Numbered from the stretch's first letter, positions 8,393 to 63,442 are shown. The stretch is DNA of 64,000 nucleotides from Vulcanimicrobiota bacterium (GCA_963812155.1 CAWETW010000001.1:96001-160000); one strand, 5' to 3'. Notes: generated by a model not told the origin, from the letters alone. A program made the numbers and translations.

Positions 8393-8526
8393 CTCTACTC
8401 CTTGCCTCTCGCGCGTGCCGGTCGGCGGACCGTAAATCTTCGCCGGCGGCGATACGAACACCTGTTCGCATACAATTGCAATCAACCCCGGTTCCGGACA
8501 CCCATTGTGTCACAGTCCGCCGGGTA

Positions 8527-31008: not shown

Positions 31009-32043
31009 GTGCAGTTGCGCCGGAATCTTCTACCGCTGGCCCGCCGATTTCGAGGGGTCCTGTTGCTCGGTACTCTGATGGCTACTGCTGCTTGCTCTGC
31101 GAACTCTTCGGTCTCGCCTCCGGCTAGCGCGCAGTTCGGCACGCAGCCGGCAAACGTTCGTCGCAGCCTTCTGCTCTCAGAGGGGTTCGGTACGGTACCG
31201 ACTACACCAACTCGAGCAAAAAGCTGGATCGCGCCGGACGTGAAGGGAGAAGGCCTCAATATCTACTGGGGTGACTACTACAACAACACGATTGCGATCT
31301 ATCCCAGAAGCGGGACCAATCCGCCGGAAAAGGGGCTCATCACCAAAGGCGTTTCGGGCCCCGAGCGGCTTTTCGTCGACAGCGCGCTCACCGTCTACGC
31401 GACCAATATCGGCAACAACACGATCACCGCATACAAGCGACACAGAACGAGACCGAGTCTACGAATCAGCTCGGGCGTCGCGGACCCAACCGGAATTACC
31501 GTCGACGCCGCCGGCACGATCTACTGCGCGAACACGGGAACCAAAACGATCACGGTTTATCCGAAAGGGCAAACCACGCCGTCGCTGACCATTCCGATAC
31601 CCGGCACACCGGAATATCTCGCTATCGATGGCTCCGACAATCTGTACGTGTCGTATTTTGGCGGCCCGACGGGAACCGCGGTCATGGAGTTTGCCCCCGG
31701 ATCGACCACGGGCAAGGATCTCGGACTCGACATGGGCGGAGGGGGAGCCTTGGAAGTCGATCGCTCCGGCAATATTATCATCGCCGATAACTACGGTTCG
31801 ACGCTCGATTTCTTTCCTGCGGGTCAGACCGAGCTGAAGAAACGAATCGGTATGCCCGGCGGCGGCGAGATCTTCGGGCTCTCGCTGAGCGAGACGGAGC
31901 ACAAAATGTTTCTCAGCGTCTGGACGAACGGCACGTTTTCAATACAGCAGGTCAACTACCCCAACCTCACTTCTTTGACGACGAAACTTTCGACCAACGC
32001 AGGGAACTGGCCGATCGCAGTGGCTCGCGACGCGGTGTTGTAG
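31009..32043 (+). CDS. Hypothetical lipoprotein with NHL-like beta-propeller repeats
   Basis: Lipobox TAAC; PTGITVDAAGTIYCAN, PEYLAIDGSDNLYVS repeats. Confidence 0.75.
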   Translation: MQLRRNLLPLARRFRGVLLLGTLMATAACSANSSVSPPASAQFGTQPANVRRSLLLSEGFGTVPTTPTRAKSWIAPDVKGEGLNIYWGDYYNNTIAIYPRSGTNPPEKGLITKGVSGPERLFVDSALTVYATNIGNNTITAYKRHRTRPSLRISSGVADPTGITVDAAGTIYCANTGTKTITVYPKGQTTPSLTIPIPGTPEYLAIDGSDNLYVSYFGGPTGTAVMEFAPGSTTGKDLGLDMGGGGALEVDRSGNIIIADNYGSTLDFFPAGQTELKKRIGMPGGGEIFGLSLSETEHKMFLSVWTNGTFSIQQVNYPNLTSLTTKLSTNAGNWPIAVARDAVL

Positions 32044-32074
32044 CCCTCGCGCGGCGCCGCAATAACTGCCGAGA

Positions 32075-32641
32075 ATGACCCCGTTCGACTATCTGACCGT
32101 CCTCGTGTCGATCGTGATCGGGTTGGCGATTGCGAACGTCCTCACGCGTCTTTCGGTCGTCATTACGGCGCGCGAGCGAGTCGACTTCTACTGGCCGCCC
32201 GTAGCGTGGGCGATCTGGCTTTTCTTCGTCGCGGTGCAGCACTGGTGGGCACAATGGAGCGTTCGCCATACGCGGGAATGGAACTTTGGCACGTTCTGCT
32301 TGGAACTGGCAGTTCCGGTGCTGTTATTTTTTATCTCCGCGCTCGTGCTGCCTGAGCGGGAGGAGAATGGAAGGCTGGATCTCGGCGAGTGGTATTTCCA
32401 CAATCGCGCGTGGTTCTTCGCGGCGCTGTTCTTCGTGCCGGCCGCAAGCCTCGCCGAAGAGCTAACGCGAACCGGCCATATCGCCTCGCCGGTTAATCTG
32501 GCGTTCTTGTTGTTCTTCGAAGTGACCATCGCCGCAGCGTACGCGCTCAAGTCGCGACGAATTCAGGAGATCATTACCGCGCAGGCGATGGCAATGACGC
32601 TGCTGTACGTGATCGTTCTCTTCATTCGACTGCCCGGATAG
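32075..32641 (+). CDS. Hypothetical membrane protein
   Basis: FDYLTVLVSIVIGLAI; about 6 TM segments. Confidence 0.75.
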   Translation: MTPFDYLTVLVSIVIGLAIANVLTRLSVVITARERVDFYWPPVAWAIWLFFVAVQHWWAQWSVRHTREWNFGTFCLELAVPVLLFFISALVLPEREENGRLDLGEWYFHNRAWFFAALFFVPAASLAEELTRTGHIASPVNLAFLLFFEVTIAAAYALKSRRIQEIITAQAMAMTLLYVIVLFIRLPG

Positions 32642-32738
32642 CACGTCACCTCCATCTGCTCCGGCCCCCGGCAAGGGGCGTCGAAGGCTCGCTCCCGAAA
32701 GGCGAACGTTCGGCCGCTTCTCCGTCCTGGAGGTTACC

Positions 32739-33944
32739 ATGAGTCAGAAGCGTTCCACTACGTTAGCCCGCATGATCGCGCCGGCGTGCGTCGCGGCGCT
32801 CGCAGCATGCGCCGGCCGGTCGACGATGCCGGCCGCAGGTCAACCCGGAGCGATCGACGCTCGCATCGCCGCTCCCGATGCCGGCTTCTCGGTGCTGTAT
32901 ACGTTTGCCGGCCAGCCCGACGGCGCCGTTTCGGTCGCCGGCATGATTGCCTCGAACGGTACGCTGTACGGTACGACGCAAGTTGGTGGCCAAGGCGGGG
33001 CGGGCTCGATCTTTACGACGAGCACCGCCGGGAAAGAGAAGGTCATCTACAGCTTCGGTTCCGGCAACCCCGACGGCGTTTTCCCCGTCGCCGAACTCAC
33101 CCTGATGTCGAGCACGTTCTACGGCACGGCGTCTTCAGGCGGCAGCCATGGATTCGGCGCGATCTTCAAGACCGATAAGAGCGGCCACGAGAGCCTCGTC
33201 TACAGCTTCAAGGGCGGCAGTGACGGTTCGGCGCCGTACGCGCGACTGGTCGCGCACAACGGCGTTTTCTACGGCACGACCTACACAGGGGGCGGAAGTG
33301 CGAACTGCCCGCAAGGATGCGGCACCGTCTTTTCAGTGACGCCCGGCGGGACCGAACACGTCTTGCATGCGTTTAAAGGCGCCAGCGGCGACGGCGCTGG
33401 CCCGATCGCCCCGCTGCTGTTGGTAGGCTCGACGTTTTACGGAACGACCGGCGGAGGCGGCAAGTTCGGCACCGGCACGATCTTCAAGACGAGTTTGTCA
33501 GGGAAAGAGCAAGTGCTGCACCACTTCGGAGCGTCGATGGACGGCTCCGAGCCGGAGGCCGGCCTGGTCAGCCTGGGCGGAAAGCTGTACGGCACGACCA
33601 ACACCGGCGGAACGCACGCCGATGGAACCGTTTTTTACACGTCTTCGGCCGGCGGCGCAACGGTAACGTACAATTTCAAGGGAGGCGCGGACGGTGCAAA
33701 TCCGGAGGCCGCGCTCACCGTCTACAAGGGCAAGCTCTACGGAACGACGGCCGCCGGCGGTTCTTCCAATCAGGGAACCGTGTTCACCGTGGGCACGGGC
33801 GGGAGCGAGAGCGTGCTGCACGCGTTCAAGTCACAGGAAGGTTCGGACCCGCGCGCGCGGCTGGTCGTCGTCAACGGGCAACTCTACGGCACGACGTCAC
33901 TGGGCGCGAAGGGATTCGGCACGATTTTCAAAGCGTCGCCGTAA
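32739..33944 (+). CDS. Lipoprotein with tandem LYGTT..GG...GTVF repeats (GloVer/TIGR03803-like)
   Basis: Lipobox LAAC; seven ~50-aa repeats with YGTT/YGTA and G(T/S/A)(V/I)F; GGAGG RBS. Confidence 0.82.
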   Translation: MSQKRSTTLARMIAPACVAALAACAGRSTMPAAGQPGAIDARIAAPDAGFSVLYTFAGQPDGAVSVAGMIASNGTLYGTTQVGGQGGAGSIFTTSTAGKEKVIYSFGSGNPDGVFPVAELTLMSSTFYGTASSGGSHGFGAIFKTDKSGHESLVYSFKGGSDGSAPYARLVAHNGVFYGTTYTGGGSANCPQGCGTVFSVTPGGTEHVLHAFKGASGDGAGPIAPLLLVGSTFYGTTGGGGKFGTGTIFKTSLSGKEQVLHHFGASMDGSEPEAGLVSLGGKLYGTTNTGGTHADGTVFYTSSAGGATVTYNFKGGADGANPEAALTVYKGKLYGTTAAGGSSNQGTVFTVGTGGSESVLHAFKSQEGSDPRARLVVVNGQLYGTTSLGAKGFGTIFKASP

Positions 33945-34037
33945 GCGTTTTTCGCGCCGGCCTGTGTTGCTAAACGTCGACTCGAGCGACAGCGTGTAAT
34001 CGGCGCGAGTCGTCCCCCTCGCACGGGCTCGCCTCTC

Positions 34038-34070
34038 ATTAAACGCACGTTAAAAGCGCGTTAAACGCGC
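34038..34070 (+). promoter_or_regulatory. Triple 11-bp direct repeat, Pho-box/OmpR-family-like site
   Basis: ATTAAACGCAC-GTTAAAAGCGC-GTTAAACGCGC; TTAAA at 34039, 34050, 34061. Confidence 0.6.
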
Positions 34071-34168
34071 AATGGAGCGAGCACTCGATACCAAGGAGAA
34101 GCCGAAGCTGCAAAAAAGGCCGGGTCAAGCCCGCGTGTGGCGGGCAGCGTGCTGACCGGAGATAACTC

Positions 34169-35164
34169 ATGATGCAACCATCTTCTTACGTGAAAATCGC
34201 GACCGTCTCGATTGCGCTGGCGCTAACGTTGTCCGGCTGCGGCGGAAACGGATCGTTACCGGGCGGTAGCGCCGGCGTCTCGCAAGCGCCGTCGCAAATA
34301 CCGGCGCTGCAACCTGAAAAGGCTCCACCGGCGGCACTGTACGTCAGCGACTTCTACGGGAAATCGGTGTTCCGGTTCGTACGCCGCACCGACGGGACGC
34401 TGCAGACACCGGCCGGATCGTCGCTCGTCCTGCCGTATAATCCCGGCCCGATCGCCATGGGCAGGAACGGTAATCTTTTCGTCACCGACGAGCAGAACGA
34501 ATCGATCGAAGTGTACCGCAAAGGCGCCACTGGGTCCGCACAACCGTCGCGAACGCTGCTGTTGCCATTCGTTCCGAGCTGCGTCGCGGTAGACGCCGCG
34601 GGTTACGAATACGCCGGCGGTTTTTCCAATGGATACGTTGCCGTCTACGCGCCTGGCGCGCACGGGCTTGCGAATACGATTGCGCGTATCGCCCTTCCCG
34701 ACGGACATCCCGACGTCAACGGCGTCGCGGTGGACGCGTCGGGAAATCTCTACGTCTCCGACTCGAACGAGATCAGCGAATTTTCTACGCCGGCTACGAA
34801 TCCAACGCTCCAACGAGCGATCGTGGGCTCCGGCCAGGAGAGTTCGCCGGCCGGGCTGGCGTTGGAGCAGGCCAACGGCGAACTCTATGCCGCCAACACC
34901 GGCGACAACAACATCCTCGCCTACGGACCGGACGCGAACGGCCACGATGCACCGGACCGCACGATTTCGTCGCAGAATCCTGCGCTCAAGAACCCGCCCG
35001 GTGTTGCCGTTCACGATGCCGTACTGTATTCGACGAGCGGAACGTCGCTCAACGGGCCGCCCTCGGTGTTCGTTTTCAACGATCGCAAAGGCGCGCAAAC
35101 TCCAAGGCAGGTCGTGACCGGTTCCTACCTGTCGTCGCCGATCGGCGCAGCGCTAGGACCGTAA
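34169..35164 (+). CDS. NHL-repeat-like lipoprotein
   Basis: Lipobox LSGC; GVAVDASGNLYVSD, ELYAAN blade repeats. Confidence 0.8.
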   Translation: MMQPSSYVKIATVSIALALTLSGCGGNGSLPGGSAGVSQAPSQIPALQPEKAPPAALYVSDFYGKSVFRFVRRTDGTLQTPAGSSLVLPYNPGPIAMGRNGNLFVTDEQNESIEVYRKGATGSAQPSRTLLLPFVPSCVAVDAAGYEYAGGFSNGYVAVYAPGAHGLANTIARIALPDGHPDVNGVAVDASGNLYVSDSNEISEFSTPATNPTLQRAIVGSGQESSPAGLALEQANGELYAANTGDNNILAYGPDANGHDAPDRTISSQNPALKNPPGVAVHDAVLYSTSGTSLNGPPSVFVFNDRKGAQTPRQVVTGSYLSSPIGAALGP

Positions 35165-35240
35165 GCGCGCCGCCTCCGGCCGGCTTCGGGGCATTCTCCT
35201 TCACGTACCGCCGCTTCGCGAAGCGGCGGCATCGTTTGCT

Positions 35241-35750
35241 ATGAAGGAGGTTCTGTTGAAACGTTACCATCTCGCGGCCGCTCTCGCTGCATCGTTGGCG
35301 AGCGCCTGTGCGCACACGGGGTCGCTGCCGTTTGCAGGCACCGGCGGCACGAACGCGCCGGCGAACGCGCGCGTTACCGCGTACATCGAACCGGCGAGTG
35401 ACTTTGTCCCACCGCGCGGCGACGGGGCCGACGCCGCGCCTTGCCGGCACCCACAGTTTCCCGTCGTGTGCGTCAAGCGCGGGCATTCGGCTACGCTCGG
35501 CATCAAGATCACGTGCACGAGAAACGGCAACCCGGTTGCCTGCGGCACCGTCACGTGGTCGACCAAACCGAGTAACAAAGGCTTGACCGCCTCGTTCGAA
35601 CCGAATCCGGGTAATCCGACCACCGAGACGATCCGCGCCGCCAAGACGCTTCGGCTTGGAAAATACTCGCAGTCGATTACGACAAAATGCTCGAACGTGC
35701 CGGATTGTCCCAAAGACTACCTCGCGCCGATCTACGTCGTCGCGAAATAG
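35241..35750 (+). CDS. Cys-rich hypothetical lipoprotein
   Basis: Lipobox ASAC; three Cys pairs; start may be TTG after AAGGAGG. Confidence 0.6.
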   Translation: MKEVLLKRYHLAAALAASLASACAHTGSLPFAGTGGTNAPANARVTAYIEPASDFVPPRGDGADAAPCRHPQFPVVCVKRGHSATLGIKITCTRNGNPVACGTVTWSTKPSNKGLTASFEPNPGNPTTETIRAAKTLRLGKYSQSITTKCSNVPDCPKDYLAPIYVVAK

Positions 35751-39604: not shown

Positions 39605-40696
39605 TTAGGGTGCGAGGAACAAGTGCTCTGGCTTGTTGCTGCACAAATCCGCGCCGCCGATGCACGCAAACTTCAACGTCGGGGTCGCCGTTTGAGCCAT
39701 CGGAAGAGCGTACACTTCGAGCCGTCCCGTCGTTTGATCGAGTGCGTAGAAGAGGTTGCGCGGCGCATCGGCGGCGATCGCACCCACGATCGTATTCGCG
39801 GTAGCATCGGGGAAGAGACCCTGCACCGGATTGAGCGGCTGCGCAAACTGCGCGAGCCGGTCGACGGGCGGCGGTGGCGGCTGCCCGGGCGGAGGCGATT
39901 GCAGCGAGCCGTTATACTGACCGAGAATAACCGGCACGGGATTGGGATTGGTCGGCAAGTATTGGCTGCTGTCGACGAAGTCGGCGAAATCCAGATTTAG
40001 TCCCGTCCCGCCAGGTGGCTTCGCGTACGGAAAGCTCGTCTTGAACAGGCGTGCCGAACTGATGCCCGCGGCAGGGGCGGCAAAGACGTACAACGTGGCG
40101 TTGACGTCGAAGCTTGCATGCACCGGGGTAAAGCCGGACGTCTTGGTTCCCGGAGCGCCAAACTGAACGGTGACCGAAGCGCTTTGGGTCGATCGCGAGA
40201 TCGGAGCCGCCAACTCCGATACCTCCCCGAGGACGTTCACGAGCCAAAGGTTTCCGTTGGGGTCGTACTCGACGTCGCCGAGTTGGGCTCCCGCCTGTCC
40301 GACCTGCGTCATTGCGGGCGTCAATGGAATCAACACTTGTGCGCGCCCAGGTTCGAACGAAACGATCGGCGGCTTGAACACACGAACCGTGGTCGCCGTG
40401 ACGATCGCGATCTTTCCGTATGGGTTGACGGCGAGTTGCGGCGCGAAACTCGAGTCCGGTGCTTCGACCAGCCGGCGTACGGGTTTGGACGCCGCCTTCA
40501 GCGGGAGCGCGTATTCATAGAGGATTCCGTTGTGATCCACATAGAGCTTGTTGGGCGCCGGCGTCGGCGTCGGCAGCGGCGGGGACGAGATCGCAACCGG
40601 CGCGGGGCCGCTGCCGCCGCCGCCGCAGCCTGCGACGGCGAGCGTCGCTGCGAGCAGCGCCGAAAAGCAGAAGAAAATCGTACGCGCTGCGTTCAT
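39605..40696 (-). CDS. Hypothetical lipoprotein (last gene of TBDR operon)
   Basis: Lipobox VAGC, Pro/Thr linker, propeller-like YDPNGNLWL; overlaps upstream stop. Confidence 0.78.
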   Translation of the reverse strand: MNAARTIFFCFSALLAATLAVAGCGGGGSGPAPVAISSPPLPTPTPAPNKLYVDHNGILYEYALPLKAASKPVRRLVEAPDSSFAPQLAVNPYGKIAIVTATTVRVFKPPIVSFEPGRAQVLIPLTPAMTQVGQAGAQLGDVEYDPNGNLWLVNVLGEVSELAAPISRSTQSASVTVQFGAPGTKTSGFTPVHASFDVNATLYVFAAPAAGISSARLFKTSFPYAKPPGGTGLNLDFADFVDSSQYLPTNPNPVPVILGQYNGSLQSPPPGQPPPPPVDRLAQFAQPLNPVQGLFPDATANTIVGAIAADAPRNLFYALDQTTGRLEVYALPMAQTATPTLKFACIGGADLCSNKPEHLFLAP

Positions 40697-41469
40697 AGAT
40701 CCATATTTCCGAAGACGGGGCCGCCCGTGCTGCCTTGGCCTGCATCTAACACGAAGAGCGACAGCCGCCCCGCATCATTAAACGGCAGTACGTTTTCGGT
40801 GTCGAGCGAAGCGACGTGCGAGAGTGGAAGCGTTCCGTTGGGTAGCGGCCTCGTCCCGGTGCCGACGTATCCCCCGAAATCCGACACGCTCTTTCCGAGC
40901 GAAACCGTAGCGAGATTGCCGAAGTGCGCGCTGCCGAGTTTCTTGAAATTCGAATCCGTCGACACCGTGAAGCTCCCGAAATCCGCATTCGGAAACGACG
41001 GCGAAGCCTCGTACAGCGCGAGCGTTGCGTTTGCAGCCGGAGCTGGCTCTTCAAACGTGAGCGCGCTGTATTTCGGATAGGTCCCAACCAGAACCACCGT
41101 ATAGGACTTTCCGGCCGCAAGGGCTGCCGACGTTTTTACGGGAGTTATCGCGTTTCCAAAACTGTCACGGGCTACGAGCGAGAGTGCGCCGGCAGGCATC
41201 GGAACAAACGGCGTTCGGGTGCCGTAGCCGAACTCCGACGCCACCGTGGCTCCGTTGACGGTGAGGTACGGACTGCTGATCTGCTGCACGACGCCGTTGA
41301 TCAGCGCCTCGAGACTGGGTGCGCCTTCGACGAATCGTACCTGCGCCTTCGTGCCAGCGACCGTCGACGGCGTCGAATTCGATCCGCTGCACGCGCAGAC
41401 AGCGAATGCAAGGGCGACAACCGCCGAAAACCGGAAAGCCCCCGCGCGCGCCGCACCGGAGTGCGGCAC
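40693..41469 (-). CDS. DUF4397-like lipoprotein
   Basis: Lipobox VCAC; AQVRFVEGAP, LAAGKSYTVVLVG, LYEASP. Confidence 0.7.
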   Translation of the reverse strand: MPHSGAARAGAFRFSAVVALAFAVCACSGSNSTPSTVAGTKAQVRFVEGAPSLEALINGVVQQISSPYLTVNGATVASEFGYGTRTPFVPMPAGALSLVARDSFGNAITPVKTSAALAAGKSYTVVLVGTYPKYSALTFEEPAPAANATLALYEASPSFPNADFGSFTVSTDSNFKKLGSAHFGNLATVSLGKSVSDFGGYVGTGTRPLPNGTLPLSHVASLDTENVLPFNDAGRLSLFVLDAGQGSTGGPVFGNMDL

Positions 41470-41502
41470 GCGCAGTGCACGTGGAACGATGTCGCAACGT
41501 GA

Positions 41503-42947
41503 TTACGGGTTGAGGCAGGGGTGTACCGCTCCGTGTCCGTTGAGAGCTTTCAAAACGGCTTTGTGGAAGGTCGCGCTCAACGGTGCGTATTCGAGCTTGT
41601 TGATGAGCGCGCTTGCGGGTTTCGACGTGAGGTAGTTAACGAGCGTCTTCAAGTCGCCGTACTTCGGGTTGTTCTTTTCGTAGAACAGCCCGTAGCGTGA
41701 GGCCGACGATCGGGTAGTCGCTCGAGGGCGGCGAAACGAACGTGCTCTGCGGTACGAACAGGATGCACTCCGGGCGCGAGCTGCCGCACGTCGCGAGATC
41801 GTTGCACTCGCCGAAGTGGATGGCCGCGTTCGTAACGCCCGCCAGAGCGCCCTTGATCGCGGCTTTGTTGGTCGGATCGACGAAGGCCGTGCCGGTTCCC
41901 TGAAGGATCGCTTGACTGACTTTCGGGTTGGCCGACTTCGCATACGCGCCTTCGACGTACCCGGTCCCGTATTTGGTGGATTGCACGCCGGCGAGAACGC
42001 CGGGGTTGCCGCTGGCACCCTCGTAGGTGCCGCCGCCCGGTCCTACTTGCCCGGTCTGAAGGCCCGGCCAGCTGCCGGTCGACGGTCCGAACGTCCACTG
42101 GGCGCTATGACCGGTCGATTCGTAGGGCAGCGGAATTGTAGGGCGCCGGCCAGCTGCTGCCGCACGCCGATTGGAGCTTCGTGACGAAGATTTGCGTCGT
42201 TCCGCTGCCGTCGGAACGGAAGTAGAACGTTATCGGCGCCGAAACGCCGCCGGTCACCGAGCCGCCGTTGTCGGCGGTGATGGCCGGATCGTTCCAGTCG
42301 CCAACGGTTCCTTCGGCGATCGCGCAGTAGGTCCAGGTCGAGAGCTTGACGTGGCTGACGCTGAAGTCTCCCGGACGGTAGCCGAAAACGATCGGTCCGC
42401 CCAGCGTCGGGAACATGAAGGGCTCGCCCTGCGTCGACTTACGATTAGCGGCGTAGACGCCGTATTCGGTCGAGCTGATCATAACGTCGCTGGCGTCGAA
42501 GTCGATCGGGTCGGTCCGTCCGCCGAAACCCGTAGCCGTGTCGCCGAGTCCGGCGCACGCGGCCGTACCGCTCAAGCGACCCGGATCGCCGTCGAACTGC
42601 TTGCGGCCTGCACCGCTGCCGGTCAAGCAGTAGAAGATCGTGCCGACTCCGCCGTACTGGGCGAAGAGCGAGTTGGATCCCGGCGGCGCTTGCGGCTGGT
42701 TGAACGTGCCGACGGGTTGGCTTGCGGTATTGTATGCCTGTGCCGGGAACGTTGCGCCGCCGGCGTGGAGGCTCGAGGGGCCGTTGTCATTGGATTTCAT
42801 GTGGCCGCCCGGTTGATTGCTTTGAGCCGACGCGGCGTTCGGTATCGTTCCCATACCGGTCGTGCCGTTAGCGGAGCTGCCGTTACACGCGCTCAGCGCG
42901 AGCGCACATACGACAGCCGACGCCATGATGGCGAGGGTCTTATTCAT
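41503..42947 (-). CDS. pstS: PstS/DING-like phosphate-binding lipoprotein; two apparent frameshifts (~42128, ~41695)
   Basis: Lipobox LSAC; GGATFPA, TGSGAG, DASD, WNDPAI, RSDGSGTT, GNPGV, GYVE, YPIVG motifs over three frames. Confidence 0.8.
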
Positions 42948-43006
42948 CGTTAACGTATCCTTATAAGGCGTGTGAGTTAGACACGTGGGCCGGGCGCATG
43001 TAGCCT

Positions 43007-45001
43007 TCATGGGTGCATGCGTCCGTTTCTAACCGGCCGCGCCGCGACGCGGTCGGAACTTGGTGCGACGAACACCGCGATGGGTGCGTTGAGACCCGTC
43101 GCGGCCCCGGCGATGCGATGCGTCGGCTTGACCGTTCCGCCCTTACCCGACGAGAACGTACCGATCGCATTGTTGAAATCGTCGGCGACGAAGAGCGTCG
43201 AGCCGTAGAGCGCGATTTCGGGGAAGTACGGCTGGAGCAAACTTGTGAACGAGACGCAGTCCGGATTCTGCGTGTAGACACCGTCGAGCGTCAGCGTGCG
43301 CAGCGGCGGCTCGTCCGTGACGCCCGAGTCCGCGCCGGCCGCATAGACGTTGACCTTCCCCTGGCACGACGTGTTGCTGCTAGGGTTCGAGACGAGTTGC
43401 GTCGCCACGAGAATCTCACCGCTGGAATCGATCCCCACGTTTGACGTTTGGAACGGCGTCAATTTCGTCACGTCGTCCCACGGGATCGTGCGCGATGGAT
43501 TGGCTTGCGGATTGCCGATGTCCGCGGCGGCCGCGACGAAGATGCCGAAGCTCGGTCCGAGCGAGCCGTGAAGCGCACCCGCGTAGTACACGTTACCCGA
43601 AGCGTCGAGGGCGAGTCCGGTCGGACCCGCGTACGGGCCGCCGTACGAGATCGTCGGGAACGCGAAGTCGAGTCCGCTTTGCGGGGGCGTCATTCCCGTT
43701 GCGCCCTTCGGATACGTCAGCACGGCATCGCCCGCGTTGCGATCGACCGACGTGGCGCCGTAAGTGACGAGCCCACCGGCTGCGTTGAGCGCGCCGAAGA
43801 GCGGATAGAGCAGCGTGCTCGTGCTCGGATCGGCGACGAGGGTGCTTACCGGCTGATCGTTTCCGCTGGCGCCGGGCGCGAAGATTGCGACCAGATTACC
43901 GCTGTCCGGCAAGTTCGAACCATCGAATCCGAACTCGGAATCGAAGTACCCGACGTCGAGGTTGCCGGCTCCATCGACGACGATGCTGCGCGCGTAGAGT
44001 TTCGGATTCAAATTCAGCGTGCGCAACGGCGCAACGTTCCCGTTGGCGTTTCCGTCGTACTCGGTCACGGTGGCGCCGAGGCCGTTCTTAGCGCCCATAT
44101 TCAGCACGTAGATCGTTCCCGGCGGCGGCGGCGGTCTGTGCCCTTGCAGAACGAACGGCGCGTTGACGCCGGGATCGCTCGGAGCCGTCGCGGCCAGCGT
44201 GATCGACGACGCTTGTGGGTTGCCATCGTAGGAAAGCGTGATGCCCGATAGCGGCTTTTCGATAGAGAGCGAAGATCCCGACGCGCCCGCGCCGTGCAAT
44301 GTGAACGAATGCGTTGCGTCGCCCTGGATGCTCAGTTCGATCGGCGATTGGTAGTTGCTCGCGCCGACGATCTGCGCTCCGCTCGCATCGAACGCGTGCA
44401 GCGTCACGCCGGCGGTCGCCGGGTCGCCGCGCTTGGCGCGATTCGGCGAGATCGCCACCGACAGACTTGCGATCACGCCGTCGATTGCGATCGACAGCTC
44501 GTCGCTGATCGGGAGTCCTCCGCCGCCTTTGCCGATTTGAACCGAAGCCGTGCCGACCGAAAGGATCGCGCCCGTCGCGTTCACGGCGCCGTACGTCGCG
44601 ACGTTGAAGACGTCGGCGCCGGGCGAACCTTGAATGGTCGCCGTGCAGACGGTGTCGTTGCCGCGCACTTTGCAGTTGTGCGAGTTCGGCGTCGTGTTGA
44701 CGACCGAGGCGCTGACGCCGCTGACGCCGTTGCCGTCCACGGATGCGAGCTGCACGGAGACCGATTGCGTGTTCGGCGAAATGTACGAGGGATGCATTAG
44801 GTGCGGTCGACCCGTCGCCGAAACGGAAACGGTGAGCTGGACGGCGACCAGCTGCGTCGGGGGCGGCGCGTGTCCGCCGGTCGAGCCGACGAACGACCCG
44901 AACGGCGTGTTCGATCCGCCGCCGCATGCGACCAAGCACGCGGATGCAACCGCAGACGTGCAGCCGGCGGCGAGACGGCGAATCGCTTTGTGCGCGATCA
45001 C
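43007..45001 (-). CDS. Large lipoprotein (Ig-like N-terminus plus beta-propeller)
   Basis: GTG 45001 overlapping upstream TGA; lipobox LVAC; PSYISPNTQS, AFDASGAQIVG, GLALDASGNVY, TGLNAPIAV. Confidence 0.78.
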   Translation of the reverse strand: MIAHKAIRRLAAGCTSAVASACLVACGGGSNTPFGSFVGSTGGHAPPPTQLVAVQLTVSVSATGRPHLMHPSYISPNTQSVSVQLASVDGNGVSGVSASVVNTTPNSHNCKVRGNDTVCTATIQGSPGADVFNVATYGAVNATGAILSVGTASVQIGKGGGGLPISDELSIAIDGVIASLSVAISPNRAKRGDPATAGVTLHAFDASGAQIVGASNYQSPIELSIQGDATHSFTLHGAGASGSSLSIEKPLSGITLSYDGNPQASSITLAATAPSDPGVNAPFVLQGHRPPPPPGTIYVLNMGAKNGLGATVTEYDGNANGNVAPLRTLNLNPKLYARSIVVDGAGNLDVGYFDSEFGFDGSNLPDSGNLVAIFAPGASGNDQPVSTLVADPSTSTLLYPLFGALNAAGGLVTYGATSVDRNAGDAVLTYPKGATGMTPPQSGLDFAFPTISYGGPYAGPTGLALDASGNVYYAGALHGSLGPSFGIFVAAAADIGNPQANPSRTIPWDDVTKLTPFQTSNVGIDSSGEILVATQLVSNPSSNTSCQGKVNVYAAGADSGVTDEPPLRTLTLDGVYTQNPDCVSFTSLLQPYFPEIALYGSTLFVADDFNNAIGTFSSGKGGTVKPTHRIAGAATGLNAPIAVFVAPSSDRVAARPVRNGRMHP

Positions 45002-46201
45002 GGATACGTCCCGTTCAGAATGTCGGAGGTCGTGACGTCCGCCTGGCCGTTGCTTCCGCGAATGCGCGGCAGTTGCGCCAGATTCTGGGGATAGGAAGCT
45101 TCGTACGCCGGGTAGTCGGTGCCGGCAGCGTAGACTTGATAGCTGCCTTCGGGGCAAATCGTTGCGCTCGGCTGTCCCGTGCTCGTCTGGGGGCCGATGT
45201 CGTCGGGCAGCGTGAGTTGGGAGAAGCCGGCGTGCGTGGCGACCATCGTATAGTATGCATCGTTGGTGTGTGCGAGGGTGCAGTCGCCGGGTGTCCCGCT
45301 ATTGCGCAGCGCCTTGACGACGATTAGCGCTTCGGTCGCGCCGCCGGGAACCCGCACGGTGACCTTCCCGCCGCCTTTTCCGTCGGCCGCAAACGCCGGG
45401 ATTGGGAACGCAGGCAGCCCGCTGAGATCCGAGAGTTGCGCGCTGACGGCAAGGACGCCCGGCGGCGGCGTGGGCGAGCCGCCCGGATTGGGGCTCGGCG
45501 TCGGATTCTGCGGCGTCGTAAATGCCGGCGGCACGGCGGCGTAGAGGTGATAGACGCCGATGACCGGTTGCACCGCAAAGTCGGTAAAGCCCAGCGAGTA
45601 GCCTTGCCACCCGAGCGCGAGCACCGCCGGATCTGCCTGCGGAAACGCCGGCGGTCCGCCGTAAAAGACCTCTTGGTCTTGGACGTTGTTGTACACGGGC
45701 AAGCTAAAGGCTTGAAAGACCGGCGACGTGCCGTTGACCGGCCCCGAATCGGAGTTACACGGACAGAATCCGTACCCGAACGCCCCCGTTGTCGACGCCT
45801 TCTGGCCCCGCGTGCCGCGCGTCCACTGCGGCTGGTTCAGCGTCGACCACGTGATGTGATTCGTACCGAAATCGGAACCGGCCGACTGCACGTCGCTTCC
45901 CGTTTCGGTGGACGTGAGCACGTTGAAACTCGTCGGGCCGATGATCTGCGGAACGTTATACAGCGTGCCCGAGAGACCGTCGGCCTGACGCAGCGTCAGC
46001 ACCGTGTTGAGCCCATGCGCGACGCTCTGACCGTTGTTGTACGACAGCGTCGCGACTCCGACCGCGAACTGCAGTTTGCTCGTCGACGGCCGGATCGAGC
46101 GACGTCACCGGCGGCTCCGACGCGCCGCCGTTGCCGCAGCCCACCGCGATGGCCGGCAGGCTCAGCGCTGCAGCGATGATGAGAAAACTCGGCAGTCTCA
46201 T
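44998..46201 (-). CDS. Hypothetical lipoprotein; one apparent frameshift ~46090
   Basis: Lipobox AVGC in the 81-aa ORF, continuing (SKLQFAVGVAT...GLNTVLTLRQ) in the 334-aa ORF; overlaps TBDR stop. Confidence 0.72.
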
Positions 46202-49200
46202 AAGAGCACCTGATAGTAGAGCCGGAACGAAATCGGCGGCTCGTTGGGATAGGTGAGATACGGTTGCGAACCGTGCGCCGTCACGTCCGGCGGCGAGTAC
46301 TGCGGCGTCGAGAACGTGCAGGGCGACGAGCCGTTGGTCAGCCCGGTCGTCACCGGATTGCCGTAACAGCCGTTGACGATGGGCACGTTGTAGAGCTGGT
46401 TGAACAGGTTCTGCACTTGCAGTCCGAACGTCGATTTAGCGAGCTTTCCGGCAGGCGGGCTGTACTCGAAAGTGAGGTCGGCATTGACGCGCGGCGTCGT
46501 AAGGAACCCGCCGGGCAGGCCGCTTTCGTGAATGCCGCGCGTGGCGGCGATATTCGGCTTGGTGCACGAACCCGGATCGAGCGGATCGATGTAGCCGGGC
46601 GTCTGCGAGTAGATCACCGAGAGCGCCGTGTTGGGGACGATCACCGGGATGCCGTTACAATACACGGCCGTGTAGTAGCCGCCGCCGTAGGGATAACCGA
46701 CGTTGAAACCGATCACCGGATTGATGCGCCAGCCCTTGATCGTCTTATAGTCGAACGCCGCATTCATCTGAAACGGCGAGAGATCGGGCGAGCGATACGT
46801 CACGCCGAGCGCCAGCGCCGCCGGCTGGAGAAACGCACCCGGCGGTTCGTTGCCGAACTGACTGATGTACGTCGCGCCGATCTGCATCGACAGCCCGAGC
46901 GGCGACTCTCTGTTGTACAGCAGCTCGACTCCGGCGGCTTTTTGAATGCCGAGATTCGAGTACTGCACGTTCCCGTACACCGGGGTTCCGGTGTCGGCGT
47001 TGAAGCCGATGATCGACGCCGTCTGTTCGATGACGTTGTAGCCGCGGCGGTAGAACGGTGTCACCTTCACGGCGGAACCGTCCTTGAACTCGTGTGCCCA
47101 CGACAGATCGACGTTGGTGAAGGTCGCGCCGACGAGTGGCGCTTCCAGCGTCGAAGCGCCGAAGCGGTAGTCGCGCGTCAGCCAATACAACTGGTCGGCG
47201 TAGCTCGTGCACGTTTGGTTGACGTGCGGACCGCAATACTGCGCCGCCTGACCGGTCGTGTTGTCGTACGACGGGATGTGCGCGTATGCCTGATACGGAA
47301 TCTGACTCACGTCGGCGCCGAGCTGGCTCGGCAGCGGCACCGAGAGGGTATGACCGAAACCGAAGCGGATCGTGTCGCGCGCGTCGGGGGCGTACGAGAC
47401 GTCGAAGTGCGGCTCGTAGAGCCGCTGGTGCTGCACCGCGCCGACGGTCGGCGGCGCGCCCGCTTGCGTCGGAATCGCAAAGTTGTAGCCGTCGAGCCGT
47501 AGGCCCAGTTCGGTCTTCCACTTGTTCGACATGTCGATCGTGTCTTGCGCGTACAGACCGTAGATCTGCTGCGAAACCGTCGCGACGTCTTGCTCGTACG
47601 GAAAGCGCACGCCCTTGGGAAAATACGAACTCAGATAGCCGCAGTTGAGCGACATGCGCAGCTGCTGGCAGACCGGCTGTGAAAAGAAATCCTGTTCGAG
47701 GCCGCTCGGTACCGACGGGTTATTATTTGGAATCAGTCCGGTGTAGGTATAAGGGAGCGGCAGCGGTTGATTCGGATGCGTGATCGCGTACGTCACGATG
47801 AACTCCGGCACCGTGAACGCCGTGTACGACGTGTAGTCGAAGCGATCGCCGAACGGCCGGGCGAACTCGTAAATCGCGCCCGCTTTGATCGTGTGCTTCG
47901 AACCGACCTGCGTGATCGTGTCGATCTGGCCGGCGGTGCGGTTGCCGCCGTACGGCGACGCGAAGATGCCTTGTGCCGGCATGTCCTGCGACTGCTGCTG
48001 GAACGTGCGCCAGTAGCGTGCCGTCAGTTGCGACGAGCTTCCAATGTTCGTGCCGTATTCCAACTTATAGGCCAGGAACGGGCTTTGCAGCGTATCCGGC
48101 GAGGAAACGAATGCGTAGGTATTGGGCTGGCCCGGAAAGAGCGGGATGAGGTTGTTGCACGCGAAGTTCTGCGATGGCGAGTTGACCGGTTGGCCGCCCG
48201 GACCGATCACCGGGAAGCTCGAGCACTTTCCGGACGTCGAACCGCCGGAGATGTACGGCAGAAATTGAAATCCGCCGTAATCGAGCTTCTGCGTGATCTG
48301 TTGATCCTGGATGAAAAACTGCAGCCGCTGTCCCTGGTTTTTGCCGAAACGCCAAATCAGGTTGTCGACAAAGTCGTTCGTCGAAAGAAACTGCGGCGCG
48401 TAGTAGACGAGGTTCGGATCGATGACGCTCCCGAGCGTCGCGGCATTGGTCCCCAGCGTTCCCAGCGTGTTGGCCGCCGTACCGGGAATGCCGTACTGAT
48501 AGTTTTTTCGCACGCCGATGAAGCCGGCGTAGTTCGAAAGGCGCTGTTTGGGATCGGCCCAGCCCCATTCGAGACCCAACTGATGCAGGTACGGGAACAC
48601 CAGCGCTTCGGTATCGACGTGTACGTACTGCGGATTTGTGCCGTGTTTGGCCGTGAAGAGCACGAGGCCCGTGCCGGTGTTGCCGTGGGTGGCGTCGCCG
48701 CCGCCGGGGATCAACTGCACGGCGCCCACCCCGTTGAGCAAGTTGAAGTTGCCGACGTTCTGCAGCGTGTTCTGGAGATTGGCGTTGGGCGTCGTGTAGT
48801 CGATGCCTTCGAACTCGTAGGCTGCCTCGAACGCGAACCCGCCACGGATCGAAACCGTTCCGCTCTTGTCGATCGTTACGCTCGGGATGCTGCGCAGCAA
48901 CTGCGTCTGGTCGGTGTTGAACTGCTTACCCTGCACCATGGTGATTTGGTTACCGGTCACGGTGTAGGTGTCGATCGTCATGCCGTGCTGAAAAGCGCTG
49001 CCGGCCGAGCGTGCCCGCGTGGTGGCAATCGTCTTGAGCGACGTCGATAGCGATACGTTGACGCTCTGCTGGGAGCCGTTGATCACGACGACGATCGTCG
49101 AAAACGGGGCGTATCCCGTATGGGTGAACGAGAGCGAATAGTTGTCGGGCAGCATGCTCAAGAAACGGTAGCGTCCTTGGGCATCCGTTGCCGTCCGGTA

Positions 49201-49389
49201 CGTAGCACTCGGCGATTTGGCCACGATCGCGACGCCCGCCACGGGTGCGTGCGAGCGGTCGTCAGTCACCGTGCCCGAAACGAGACCGCCGGTTTCGGCG
49301 ATTGCATTGGATGAAGAAAGAAAGACGAAGAAACCCAAGACGAAGACGCTTTTCACCCGCAACAGGGTACGAATCAACGGCGGCTCCAT
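46198..49389 (-). CDS. TonB-dependent receptor (Oar/SusC-like, N-terminal carboxypeptidase-regulatory-like domain)
   Basis: VSGTVTD...TDAQGRYRF...YSLSFTHTGY domain, plug LLRSIPSV/SIRGG, barrel motifs GLYAQDT, LGLRLD, VQNLFNQ; 1063 aa. Confidence 0.88.
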   Translation of the reverse strand: MEPPLIRTLLRVKSVFVLGFFVFLSSSNAIAETGGLVSGTVTDDRSHAPVAGVAIVAKSPSATYRTATDAQGRYRFLSMLPDNYSLSFTHTGYAPFSTIVVVINGSQQSVNVSLSTSLKTIATTRARSAGSAFQHGMTIDTYTVTGNQITMVQGKQFNTDQTQLLRSIPSVTIDKSGTVSIRGGFAFEAAYEFEGIDYTTPNANLQNTLQNVGNFNLLNGVGAVQLIPGGGDATHGNTGTGLVLFTAKHGTNPQYVHVDTEALVFPYLHQLGLEWGWADPKQRLSNYAGFIGVRKNYQYGIPGTAANTLGTLGTNAATLGSVIDPNLVYYAPQFLSTNDFVDNLIWRFGKNQGQRLQFFIQDQQITQKLDYGGFQFLPYISGGSTSGKCSSFPVIGPGGQPVNSPSQNFACNNLIPLFPGQPNTYAFVSSPDTLQSPFLAYKLEYGTNIGSSSQLTARYWRTFQQQSQDMPAQGIFASPYGGNRTAGQIDTITQVGSKHTIKAGAIYEFARPFGDRFDYTSYTAFTVPEFIVTYAITHPNQPLPLPYTYTGLIPNNNPSVPSGLEQDFFSQPVCQQLRMSLNCGYLSSYFPKGVRFPYEQDVATVSQQIYGLYAQDTIDMSNKWKTELGLRLDGYNFAIPTQAGAPPTVGAVQHQRLYEPHFDVSYAPDARDTIRFGFGHTLSVPLPSQLGADVSQIPYQAYAHIPSYDNTTGQAAQYCGPHVNQTCTSYADQLYWLTRDYRFGASTLEAPLVGATFTNVDLSWAHEFKDGSAVKVTPFYRRGYNVIEQTASIIGFNADTGTPVYGNVQYSNLGIQKAAGVELLYNRESPLGLSMQIGATYISQFGNEPPGAFLQPAALALGVTYRSPDLSPFQMNAAFDYKTIKGWRINPVIGFNVGYPYGGGYYTAVYCNGIPVIVPNTALSVIYSQTPGYIDPLDPGSCTKPNIAATRGIHESGLPGGFLTTPRVNADLTFEYSPPAGKLAKSTFGLQVQNLFNQLYNVPIVNGCYGNPVTTGLTNGSSPCTFSTPQYSPPDVTAHGSQPYLTYPNEPPISFRLYYQVLL

Positions 49390-49579
49390 AGAAACGCGAG
49401 GCGTGAAGAGGCGCGAGATGGTCCAACGCTTCTCATCCCGACTCTACGCGGGCGCAGCACCGGGCCGCATCCCGGACGAAAACCAAAACGTTAATGGAAT
49501 GGCGGTTTTGATTACGGCGCCTTAAGACAATTTCGCCTCGCGTTAACAAATGGTGCGCGTGTCCGGTACTGCGGCACCG

Positions 49580-50860
49580 CTACTCGGCGGCCGGACTGCT
49601 CAGGTCGACGATTTGCCAGCGCGAGCGCAGGCCGAGGCGCGAAAGGATCGAGCTGACGTGACGCTCGACGGTGTGTTCGCTGATCTGCAGGGTGTGGGCG
49701 ACCTCGCGATTCGAGGCGCCGCGGCGAATGAGATGCGCCACTTGACGCTCGCGCCCCGTCAGCGAGAGGGCGCTCGGACGGCGCCGCGGCGGCGCCGAAT
49801 CGGCGGCGTGGTCGTGCACGAGCAGGTTCATGGCCTCGTCGGTCCAGCACCGCAAACCCATCGCGTCGAACGCGCGCGCAGCGTCGCCGGCGCTGTCGAC
49901 GGCATCGGAACGCTTTCCGAATCGCGCGCACCAATGCGCGCGTGCGAGCAAATAATGCGCGTAGAGGTACGGCCGGCGCGGAGCAAACGCCGCCCGCAGT
50001 CCGTCGAGGCCGAAACCGGCGTCGTCGGCGTCGCCGAACCGGGCCGCGAGCGAGAAGAGTTCGGGAGCCACGGACGCATTGTCGCAGCGCACCAGCGCGC
50101 GACGCAGCGCGGCCGAGGGAAGTGCGCCGCCGCCCACGCCGGCGGCATGCACGCAGGCGACCGCCGCGCCGATGGACGATGGAATTTCGAACGCGTTGAG
50201 CGCGACGTCGAGAATTTCCGGCGATGTCCAGGTTTGCAGCGCGGCGGCGTCACCGTTGGCCAGTGCCAGCCGCACGCCCACCGGCGCAAAGAGCGCGCGC
50301 ACCCCGGCGCTCTGCGCCGCCGCCTCGGACGTGAGGCGTTCGGCTCGCGCGAAGTCGCCTACCCCGACGGCAAGCGTTGCGATCGTCGCCGCGGCGACCC
50401 TCCTCCACTCGTGCAAACCGTGCTGGGCCGCGAGGTCGAACGTCGCCGCGCCGCCGGCGTGCGCTTCCACGAGATTTCCGAAGAGCAGCGCGTGGTGCGC
50501 GATTCGCTCGTGTAACGCTGCGGCCAGATGGGGTGCCTCCGACGGCACCGCGCCGGCGCCGTCACGCCAAGAGCGCAGCGTCTCGGTTTCATCTCCCGTC
50601 CACGAGTTTGCGATCGCCGCAGCGGCGTGATCGAACCACTGCGCTCCGCCGGAAAGCGTTTCGAGATAGCCGTTCCCGCGGCCGTTGGCACCGAGCAGGT
50701 GCGGATCGATCGCCGCTGCCATCGCCTTCTCGGCACCCGCGAGGGCGAAGATGCCGGCGGAAAACCGTCGCAGTTCCTCCACCGCGCCGGCAACTGCCGT
50801 GCACGCGGCCGTGAGCCGAGCCTGCGCTAGCATTGCGTGAACTCGATCCGCGCCGGTCAT
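49580..50860 (-). CDS. LuxR-family transcriptional regulator (C-terminal HTH)
   Basis: LTGRERQVAHLIRRGASNREVAHTLQISEHTVERHVSSILSRLG. Confidence 0.88.
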   Translation of the reverse strand: MTGADRVHAMLAQARLTAACTAVAGAVEELRRFSAGIFALAGAEKAMAAAIDPHLLGANGRGNGYLETLSGGAQWFDHAAAAIANSWTGDETETLRSWRDGAGAVPSEAPHLAAALHERIAHHALLFGNLVEAHAGGAATFDLAAQHGLHEWRRVAAATIATLAVGVGDFARAERLTSEAAAQSAGVRALFAPVGVRLALANGDAAALQTWTSPEILDVALNAFEIPSSIGAAVACVHAAGVGGGALPSAALRRALVRCDNASVAPELFSLAARFGDADDAGFGLDGLRAAFAPRRPYLYAHYLLARAHWCARFGKRSDAVDSAGDAARAFDAMGLRCWTDEAMNLLVHDHAADSAPPRRRPSALSLTGRERQVAHLIRRGASNREVAHTLQISEHTVERHVSSILSRLGLRSRWQIVDLSSPAAE

Positions 50861-62101: not shown

Positions 62102-63442
62102 GTGGTGCGAATTATCGTCGCCTTGACGTGCGCGCTCGTTTTTGCGTCGTGCGCCGTCCAATCCCAAGAGCCCGCCGTTCCGGGCGATCGCGCGAACGGC
62201 GCCATGGACCCGAATCGCTTCCACTCGCCGATTAAGCACGTCGTGATCCTCGTCCAGGAAAATCGGACCTCGGACTATCTCTTCCAAAACGTCCCCGGCG
62301 CCGACATCGCAAAGACGGCAATCGACTGGCACGGCCACGTCGTCGCGTTAAAGCCGATGTCGTTGGCCGCACCCTACGACCTCGATCACGGGCACGGCGC
62401 CTTCGTTCGCGATTACGACGGCGGAAGGATGGACGGCTTCGACAAGGCGCTGACCCAGACGCAAAAACAGGGCGGCGGCCCGTTCCGTTACGCACCGCGC
62501 AGCGAAGTTCGACCCTATCTCGCGTTGGCGACCCAGTACGTTTTCGCCGACCGGATGTTCCAGAGCGATCAGGCCGGAAGCTTTCCGTCCCATCAGTATC
62601 TGATCAGCGGGTCGTCGGCCGCGCTGCCGCTCACGCCGTTCGACGACTCGAGCGATCCTTTCGACAAAGTCACCCTCGAGAAGGGAGACGCGGGCTGCGA
62701 CGCGCGCAAGGACGTCGTCGTGAATACGATCAACCCGCACAACGGAGCCCCCGGGCCGACGCCCTTTCCATGCTTCGATCGACCGGTGCTCTCCGATTTT
62801 CTCGACCAGCGCGGCGTGTCGTGGCGCTACTATCAGAACCATCTCGGTCCGGGTCTGTGGCACGCCTTCGACGCGATCTCGCACGTGCGCTACGGCCGCG
62901 ACTACGCCAACGTCGTGACGCCGCCGGAGACGGTTCTCGCCGACGCGCGTCACGGCGCGCTTGCGGGCGTCTCCTGGGTGATGCCCGCCGACGCTAAGCA
63001 CTCCGACCACGCGAACAGTGAAAGCGCCGCGGGGCCGTCGTGGGTCGCCGCCGTGGTCAATGCAATCGGCCAAGGCCCTGAGTGGAACTCGACGGCGATT
63101 TTCATTACGTGGGACGACTGGGGCGGATGGTACGATCACGTTTCGCCCCATCAGTATTCGAACTACTTCGAACTCGGCTTTCGCGTGCCGCTCGTCGTCG
63201 TTTCACCGTACGCGAAGAAAGGTTACGTCTCGCACGTCGACCACGAGTTCGGCAGCATCTTGGCGTTTTGCGAACGGGTTTTCGGCATTTCAAAAGGAGC
63301 GCTCCACTCCACCGACGTGCGCGCCGACGCCTTGATGGACGCGTTCGATTTCACGCAGTCTCCGCGCACGTTCGTACGCATCGTCGCACATCGCTTCGTC
63401 CCGGCGCGCGACGACGGGGCGGCATCCGCGGAGGATCCGTAA
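62102..63442 (+). CDS. Phosphoesterase (phospholipase C / acid phosphatase AcpA family) lipoprotein
   Basis: IKHVVILVQENRT, SFPSH, SDH, ITWDDWGGWYDHV, GFRVPLVVVSPYAK. Confidence 0.88.
   Translation: MVRIIVALTCALVFASCAVQSQEPAVPGDRANGAMDPNRFHSPIKHVVILVQENRTSDYLFQNVPGADIAKTAIDWHGHVVALKPMSLAAPYDLDHGHGAFVRDYDGGRMDGFDKALTQTQKQGGGPFRYAPRSEVRPYLALATQYVFADRMFQSDQAGSFPSHQYLISGSSAALPLTPFDDSSDPFDKVTLEKGDAGCDARKDVVVNTINPHNGAPGPTPFPCFDRPVLSDFLDQRGVSWRYYQNHLGPGLWHAFDAISHVRYGRDYANVVTPPETVLADARHGALAGVSWVMPADAKHSDHANSESAAGPSWVAAVVNAIGQGPEWNSTAIFITWDDWGGWYDHVSPHQYSNYFELGFRVPLVVVSPYAKKGYVSHVDHEFGSILAFCERVFGISKGALHSTDVRADALMDAFDFTQSPRTFVRIVAHRFVPARDDGAASAEDP

Follow-up and report, generated by a model that had tools for sequence, protein, structure and literature searches.

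A conserved gene block of Eremiobacterota joins a TonB-dependent transporter and a partner lipoprotein to a DING-like phosphate-binding protein, with a probable role in phosphorus acquisition

The window analyzed here is a 64,000-nucleotide stretch from the genome of a Vulcanimicrobiota bacterium (GCA_963812155.1 CAWETW010000001.1:96001-160000; G000:C1:96001-160000 in our numbering; genome of 2.96 Mb, 84% complete). Six minus-strand genes, encoding a TonB-dependent transporter and five putative lipoproteins, lie in it next to a gene for a LuxR-type helix-turn-helix (HTH) regulator. The original prediction, made from the sequence, had read this block as an outer-membrane phosphate-scavenging system. 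The coordinates that it gave for the seven genes were confirmed, as were the three overlapping junctions (ATGA at 46198-46201, GTGA at 44998-45001 and ATGA at 40693-40696), the two gaps (59 bp at 43006-42948 and 33 bp at 41502-41470) and the five lipoboxes (AVGC, LVAC, LSAC, VCAC and VAGC). The source genome is a metagenome-assembled genome (MAG) from soil and belongs to the Eremiobacterota (Vulcanimicrobiota), and the closest named relatives of the transporter were found in MAGs of the same phylum, including Ca. Tumulicola and Ca. Cybelea (GTDB scan, best 60 of 352 matches). The genes on which the analysis centers are the following.

46198..49389, minus strand: TonB-dependent transporter of 1063 aa, with signal peptide, CarboxypepD_reg domain, plug-like domain and barrel
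44998..46201, minus strand: lp1, partner lipoprotein from a family without a name, encoded immediately downstream of the transporter, with two predicted beta-sandwich domains
41503..42947, minus strand: DING-like phosphate-binding lipoprotein (PF12849), about 480 aa in intact orthologues

The frames of lp1 (46201-44998) and of the DING-like gene (42947-41503), which was first described as PstS-like, are interrupted in the present assembly by one-base insertions near 46087 in the former and near 42129 and 41697 in the latter. These insertions were missing in contigs from 3/4, 3/4 and 2/4 soil runs, respectively, which represent related strains of 90-99% identity. We conclude that the frameshifts are most likely assembly errors, because related strains lack the extra bases, the orthologues have open frames, and valS and further housekeeping genes within the window are broken likewise. 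A reading of the two genes as pseudogenes was rejected on the evidence of the related-strain contigs. As the frames are broken in the window, intact orthologues were used for the analysis.

The neighborhood check proposed along with the prediction was run on 60 named loci, 47 of which have at least 7 kb of sequence downstream. The neighborhood was conserved in these 47 close loci: lp1 and two further lipoprotein genes of the block, DUF4397 and lp5, were kept in all of them, the lipoprotein gene lp2 and the DING-like gene in 46 (the latter within 10 kb) and the regulator in 45. The linkage persists through inversion and reshuffling, including five rearranged loci. A position between valS and clpX was rejected as a general feature of the block, since it is seen in the window's genus only (8/47 loci). 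The string of five lipoprotein genes is by itself unremarkable because such strings are common in the source genome, where a lipobox-like motif occurs in 233 of 2535 script-called open reading frames (ORFs) and six other runs of 3-4 lipoprotein genes are present; it is the conservation that carries weight. Distant loci usually have the DING-like gene divergent from the transporter gene or just before it, with lp1 behind the transporter and an lp2-type or NHL-propeller lipoprotein gene nearby. DUF4397 was not found in the G023 locus or in the distant loci, from which lp5 is also absent. Thus, the proposed six-gene unit is reduced to a conserved core that consists of the transporter, lp1 and the DING-like protein, together with an lp2-type or propeller lipoprotein.

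Co-occurrence was tallied in 260 genomes of the class (at least 85% complete, plus the source genome), with cut-offs of E<=1e-50 for the DING-like protein and E<=1e-100 for the transporter clade and with a profile built partly from the tallied genomes themselves. Both genes were present in 90 genomes and neither in 163, while the DING-like gene alone was found in 5 and the transporter alone in 2. Nine g42 genomes lacked both. The assemblies of the seven discordant genomes consist of 30-450 contigs. Most carriers fall within two sister-like genera; outside these two large genera, 25/179 genomes had both genes and 0/179 had one only. Joint presence or absence was seen in about 23 genera. In a transporter tree of 54 rows, the clade of the block's transporter had a support of 100; a DING-like neighbor was seen for 32 of the 34 rows in it (the exceptions being G028, where the genes are 30 kb apart, and L123), as compared to 0/20 of the other transporters so labelled. 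Three subclades are shared by the transporter tree and the DING tree, and in two of them the host families f1 and f3 are mixed, whereas the tree of canonical PstS proteins splits by host family. The DING-like and transporter genes have thus been lost, or have moved, together. Unpublished genomes contributed to the 13 promoters used for training below and the PstS tree (G059 and G048), to the class tally (G248), and to the control transporters, alignments and transporter tree (G035 and G022); no main claim rests on them alone.

The binding protein was assigned by a profile of 22 sequences, which placed PfluDING (2q9t, E=5.8e-39), 4m1v, 2v3q and 3w9v above every PstS, including that of E. coli (1ixh, 3e-27). 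The phosphate site of DING proteins is given as eight residues (PMC7922408). In the window, the motifs GGATF, TGSG, ASD and RSDGSGT align with the DING phosphate ligands in 2q9t/4m1v. The site (T,F,S,D,R,D,S,G,T) is complete in 46/48 DING-like rows of the 60 named loci, two loci having yielded no row under the filter; one exception is frameshifted and the other is a T>D/D>A variant. Among the database homologues P0001-P0120, it is complete in 85/120. Six cysteines besides that of the lipobox are kept in 118-120 of the 120 homologues. DING proteins have protruding loops and four conserved cysteines that form two disulfides. In the block's protein, the first pair aligns with PfluDING; the C-terminal cysteine is kept, although the window's genus has its partner at a different position. 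An additional pair and long insertions are present. The N-terminal DINGGG signature is not present in the window, which reads LHAGGATF, and no DINGG was found in the 150 best representatives. The match to TIGR00975 reached 58 bits at a cut-off of 205. A canonical pstS-pstC-pstA-pstB cluster lies elsewhere in the source genome (C1:430-434 kb), and the canonical PstS proteins of the same genomes form a separate clade in the tree. Judged by its sequence, the binder is therefore DING-like and neither an ABC-transporter PstS nor a DING protein in the strict sense, so that from the original label of PstS/DING-like only the second half holds, with an intact phosphate site.

The wider DING-like family comprises 418 representatives at E<=1e-30. 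The five lipoprotein genes of the block all have a lipobox in the window, as originally described, and the lipobox of the DING-like protein is present in 16/17 members of the window's subclade; it is absent from 16/17 members of one other subclade, whose single match looks spurious. Secretin genes were observed beside two subclade-a loci with lipobox-free DING-like proteins (L042:2342-3979 and L135:10-810, in G058 and G080), L042 also having an Hcp-like gene. The block contains no type II secretion system (T2SS) cluster, and one secretin is found elsewhere in the source genome. In G233 (L132:2408-10957), valS and pstS-pstC-pstA-pstB are followed directly by a DING-like gene, which has a Pho-box-like site to itself. 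Variants with an altered site (L048:780-2225, L078:6612-8084 and 34 of P0001-P0120) have the first Thr replaced by Asp, the acceptor Asp by Ala or Ser and often Ser by Ala or Gly; these coherent changes possibly reflect another ligand or protonation state.

The transporter matches PF13620 (CarboxypepD_reg) and, above cut-off, PF00593 (TonB barrel), with no match to the Pfam Plug model. The structure model, from an alignment of 30 sequences, has a mean predicted local distance difference test (pLDDT) score of 66.8 and displays a small N-domain, a plug-like domain and 22 long barrel strands (manual count from the DSSP list). Foldseek returned Fiu, PqqU and YncD as best matches (E about 1e-24, 10-13% identity). 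All matches listed were TonB transporters of 9-13% identity, none prominent, with the SusC structure 8a9y at rank 45; the structure is therefore uninformative about the cargo. The predicted 22-strand barrel with its N-terminal plug places the protein in the TonB-dependent class and bears out the receptor assignment. NCBIfam SusC/RagA models gave no match. The source genome as a whole has 13 barrel matches, 5 of TonB_C, 1 of ExbB and 2 of ExbD, plus Omp85; the TonB_C, ExbB and ExbD matches are grouped on contig C5 and supply the components of a TonB-ExbB-ExbD motor. No match to the barrel or to the DING-like protein was found in a plasmid collection.

The partner lipoprotein lp1 had no sequence match in Pfam, NCBIfam or the PDB, and in particular none to SusD models in Pfam or NCBIfam. 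Its model (pLDDT 72.6) is all-beta with two beta-sandwiches, in agreement with the suggestion that it is not a SusD. The predicted C-terminal domain is FN3-like with a middling score (Z 8.3, root-mean-square deviation 2.1, 90 aligned residues). A wide Foldseek search gave only weak immunoglobulin (Ig)/FN3 matches among the families listed, and the Atlas gave no match of at least 0.9 for lp1 or the N-terminal part of lp2. The lp1 family was found in 182/301 genomes of the phylum, all within f1-f3, the three families of its class. It lies directly behind members of the transporter family, whether these belong to the DING-linked clade or are relatives without DING; among the transporters of the source genome, only that of the block has an lp1 gene behind it. 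The transporter-lp1 pair is a class-wide unit, and its DING-free contexts include positions beside xerC-hslVU, dnaK, ABC exporters and glycosidases (L055-L067). Based on its position behind the transporter and on the precedent in Bacteroides (10.1101/2023.03.17.533168), lp1 may be the lid of the transporter. A complex prediction with a homologous barrel (G052, 783 aa) and the lp1 N-domain (207 aa), both chains being shortened, scored 0.00, which speaks neither for nor against this role.

Regulation by phosphate was addressed through the pstS promoters of the class, which carry YTTAA repeats at 11 bp. The Pho box of Synechocystis resembles their consensus (PMC4195498). A matrix was trained on 13 of these promoters, leaving out the source genome and using start codons from script ORF tables, which are possibly off. 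Scores of at least 10 bits were obtained before 12/17 distant clade transporters, as compared to 1/14 control transporters and 0.9% of 1070 promoter-like regions of the source genome. In the loci of family f3, the top scorers were nearly all pstS, clade transporters, DING-like genes or divergent neighbors. Twelve sites of the source genome exceeded 14 bits, with a porin-like pair after phoR-pstB at rank 1, pstS at rank 3 and phoU at rank 10. The first of these lies in G000:C1:830998-836406 (L151), where a phoR-like gene and a second pstB precede the site and two porin-like genes follow it, one with a weak OprD match. The second-best score (24.6 bits) belongs to an 11-bp TTTAAC repeat at window positions 34034-34067, before an NHL-propeller lipoprotein gene (34169-35164). 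A second candidate locus for phosphorus uptake was seen in G058 (L068:3-9225), where a different type of TonB transporter, whose Pho-box-like site is strong (27.8 bits), comes after pstSCAB together with a phosphoesterase. Upstream of the block's own transporter lies one further feature.

49491..49546, minus strand: array of TTAA/GTAA half-sites with spacings of 21, 10 and 21, Pho-box-like and off the 11-bp period

When spacings of 10-11 bp were allowed, the window promoter scored 10.6 bits, a value reached by 22/1070 regions of the source genome. TTA(A/G) is kept at the same place in 38/39 close promoters, with spacings of 20-21 and 31 bp, and the array may be bound by PhoB or by the LuxR protein. 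Induction of the block by the Pho system would fit these patterns; for the window itself, Pho control is more tentative, because in it and its genus the spacing of the promoter repeats is 21 and 10 bp and the strict scores are poor. A scan for sigma-70 promoters and terminators was at chance level, and a search of sequencing runs listed no RNA run among the carriers.

The remaining genes of the block are the accessory lipoproteins and the regulator.

43007..45001, minus strand: lp2, lipoprotein of 664 aa with a likely Ig-like N-terminal part and a likely beta-propeller
40693..41469, minus strand: DUF4397 lipoprotein, accessory, start uncertain (Pfam PF14344, E=6e-13)
39605..40696, minus strand: lp5, accessory lipoprotein of 363 aa, possibly a propeller distantly like the C-terminal part of lp2
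49580..50860, minus strand: LuxR-family HTH regulator of 426 aa with a C-terminal GerE domain (Pfam GerE, E=9e-15)

For lp2, a weak SBBP propeller match was obtained, and Atlas leads to Big_2/Big_7 at 0.84-0.87 are taken as leads only; its N-terminal part is also present in distant loci. The comparison of lp5 with the C-terminal part of lp2 by hhalign gave a probability of 41% (E=3e-4), and lp5 had no family match in Pfam or NCBIfam. PDB sequence profiles of lp1, both parts of lp2 and lp5 returned nothing usable. A fourth one-base assembly error may lie at the 5' end of the DUF4397 gene. Homologues of lp2, DUF4397 and lp5 were seen within a single frame of 1210 aa in G182 (L149:1332-4961), which is either a fusion or an assembly effect. 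NarL-type regulators are found beside several distant loci. No phosphatase family was detected within the block by Pfam or NCBIfam, and phosphoesterases adjoin the G023 locus only, in a lineage that is very rich in them. The source genome has 62 PF04185 phosphoesterase matches in its 2.96 Mb, often in tandem and several with lipoboxes, which amounts to a very large expansion; one copy is located at 62231-63289 of the window. Genes of arsenic-resistance type (arsR, arsC, acr3, aquaporin and glyoxalase, as read from translations) are inserted beside the block in four genomes (L032:15378-17315, L045:591-2086, L043:9141-11640 and L140:1149-3250). The window also contains a further group of lipoprotein-like genes at 31009-35750, with NHL propellers and a GloVer-repeat protein, and at 3665-8485 a ribonucleotide reductase gene broken by frameshifts into several pieces, with an apparent intein and its homing-endonuclease domain (5815-6948, read by eye).

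Taken together, we consider it likely that phosphorus acquisition, in one form or another, is the function of the module. The exact topology, a starvation-induced surface trap, is more tentative and in our judgment falls a little short of an even chance. Phosphate starvation would induce the transporter, lp1 and DING-like genes, and the DING-like protein, exposed outside the outer membrane by its lipid tether in the window's subclade and as a soluble, likely secreted protein in one other subclade, would capture orthophosphate there. It would then hand over the phosphate directly to the transporter, with lp1 as the probable cap; energized import would follow, and the ordinary PstSCAB system would take the phosphate onward. 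The lp2, DUF4397 and lp5 proteins could act as an accessory scaffold or as mineral- or polymer-binding parts. Haemophores deliver haem to their receptor, as in the HasA/HasR pair. By analogy, the DING-like protein might act as a 'phosphatophore' and, either at the surface or after secretion, carry orthophosphate with high affinity to a TonB-dependent receptor of its own, although we regard this stronger version as doubtful.

Several observations weigh against the surface trap. The OprD-like porin genes behind the best Pho box of the source genome might let free phosphate in with no need for a TonB transporter, a transporter of 1063 aa is large for ion import, and no TonB transporter for inorganic phosphate was found in the open-licence literature. 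The characterized PusCD systems carry organophosphates (10.64898/2026.09.03.749221). The phosphate site is altered in 34/120 homologues (D at the first position; T>D, D>A/S), and DING-like genes also occur at a distance from the transporter (about 30 kb in G028, and as extra copies in G180 and G233). With respect to regulation, 9 of the 12 top sites of the source genome precede no recognizable phosphate gene, only 1/10 loci of the window's genus and G023 reach at least 10 bits, the strict score of the window promoter is 1.8 bits, as high or higher in 134/1070 regions, and the TTAA array may be owned by the adjacent LuxR protein. The cut-offs of the class tally were set where the results showed gaps, and related genomes are not independent of one another.

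The precedent of PusCD, the size of the transporter and the 62 phosphoesterase matches would also suit a different topology, in which an organic or polymeric phosphorus compound is imported by the transporter and lp1 and then cut by phosphoesterases of the periplasm, where the DING-like protein serves as a high-affinity sink or buffer that feeds PstSCAB. The soluble DING-like forms of subclade a could be periplasmic, and porin candidates exist for free phosphate. However, no phosphatase gene is regularly found in the block, unlike in the PUS loci (PMC8115612), a canonical periplasmic PstS is already present in the source genome, and the DING proteins studied so far are exported (PMC2225411). 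This topology is thus a serious alternative that we nevertheless rate as rather unlikely. A barrel for export or anchoring, displaying the DING-like protein and the propeller and Ig lipoproteins as a surface coat or adhesin under phosphate starvation, seems quite improbable, since a folded, disulfide-rich cargo of 50 kDa would fit a plugged 22-strand barrel poorly. TonB-type export is reportedly carried out by Oar of Myxococcus. Known DING genes adjoin their own secretion system (PMC2225411), DING proteins occur on surface appendages (PMC3949141), the partners are Ig/FN3-like and propeller proteins, and the G028 transporter lies within a polysaccharide export cluster. Yet the secretins beside the G058 and G080 loci, and the one elsewhere in the source genome, would offer an ordinary export route, and the transporter-lp1 pair is widespread without DING.

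The conserved regulator and the NarL-type genes beside distant loci could instead be the output of a block that senses outside phosphate, or that imports an unrelated ligand such as a metal-phosphate or other oxyanion complex, with the DING-like protein as sensor or accessory; the binding-site variants and the inserted arsenic-resistance genes would be compatible with such a role. We give this reading a small chance only, since no anti-sigma/extracytoplasmic function (ECF) sigma pair or signaling N-domain was seen (Pfam CarboxypepD_reg only), the DING-like copies in the operon keep the canonical phosphate site, and the Pho-box-like repeats place the block downstream rather than upstream of phosphate sensing. 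Finally, runs of lipoprotein genes are common in the source genome and most carriers belong to two sister-like genera, as might be expected if the genes were co-inherited neighbors without a common function in a lipoprotein island of higher AT content. This explanation is strongly disfavored and very improbable in view of the linkage through rearrangements, the joint presence or absence at genus level and the matching subclades across host families.

The originally stated absence of any described system of this architecture needs to be narrowed: phosphorus-linked transporter-lipoprotein loci and DING exoproteins are already known, while no description of the locus or of the pairing of DING with a transporter was found in the open-licence literature. 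SusD proteins are helical and contain tetratricopeptide repeats (TPR). The PusCD/PUS loci of Flavobacterium likewise combine a TonB transporter with a downstream partner lipoprotein and are tied to phosphate starvation, but they are described as SusC/SusD homologues with phosphatases alongside, an organophosphate cargo and hosts mostly without PstSCAB (PMC8115612; 10.64898/2026.09.03.749221). In the block, by contrast, lp1 is predicted to be all-beta, phosphatases are not regular members, the constant partner is a DING-like binder, and PstSCAB is present. By the criteria of a SusD homologue and SusC family membership, applied to sequence and predicted structure, the block is not a member of the SusCD/PusCD group. 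The SusCD utilisomes of Bacteroidota also consist of a transporter followed by several lipoproteins, and non-SusD lids are known among them (10.1101/2023.03.17.533168). The block differs in its phylum and in lp1, which matches no searched library and whose lid role is putative. It would extend machines of the utilisome type to a soil phylum that has received little study, with partner proteins whose family lacks a name and a solved relative, and it points to how Eremiobacterota may compete for phosphorus in poor soils.

Outside Bacteroidota, a phosphate-starvation lipoprotein beside a TonB receptor is known from Caulobacter (ElpS, CC0170, and CC0171; PMC2996285). ElpS is, however, not phosphate-binding and is released by an adjacent T2SS. 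PstS of PstSCAB shares the fold family and the ligand residues of the block's DING-like protein, which forms a separate clade and is not encoded beside pstCAB, with the one exception of G233. The closest relatives in the structural database are the Pseudomonas DING proteins (Psp/PfluDING and PA14 DING; 2q9t, 4m1v and 3w9v), with a full phosphate site, extra loops and an aligned first disulfide pair. DING proteins are phosphate-induced T2SS exoproteins (PMC2225411) with extra loops and disulfides (PMC7922408). The block's protein, in contrast, has no DINGGG, is about 100 residues longer, is predicted to be lipid-anchored in two subclades and has a TonB transporter as its partner instead of the Hxc T2SS. 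For the return of DING-bound phosphate to the cell, the Pseudomonas study puts forward a hand-over to Pst as a proposal only (PMC2225411). The transporter clade that travels with DING-like genes across the class is a concrete candidate receptor; if the carrier reading were true, the block would represent a TonB transporter for inorganic phosphate, a receptor for DING proteins and a new family of lids outside Bacteroidota.

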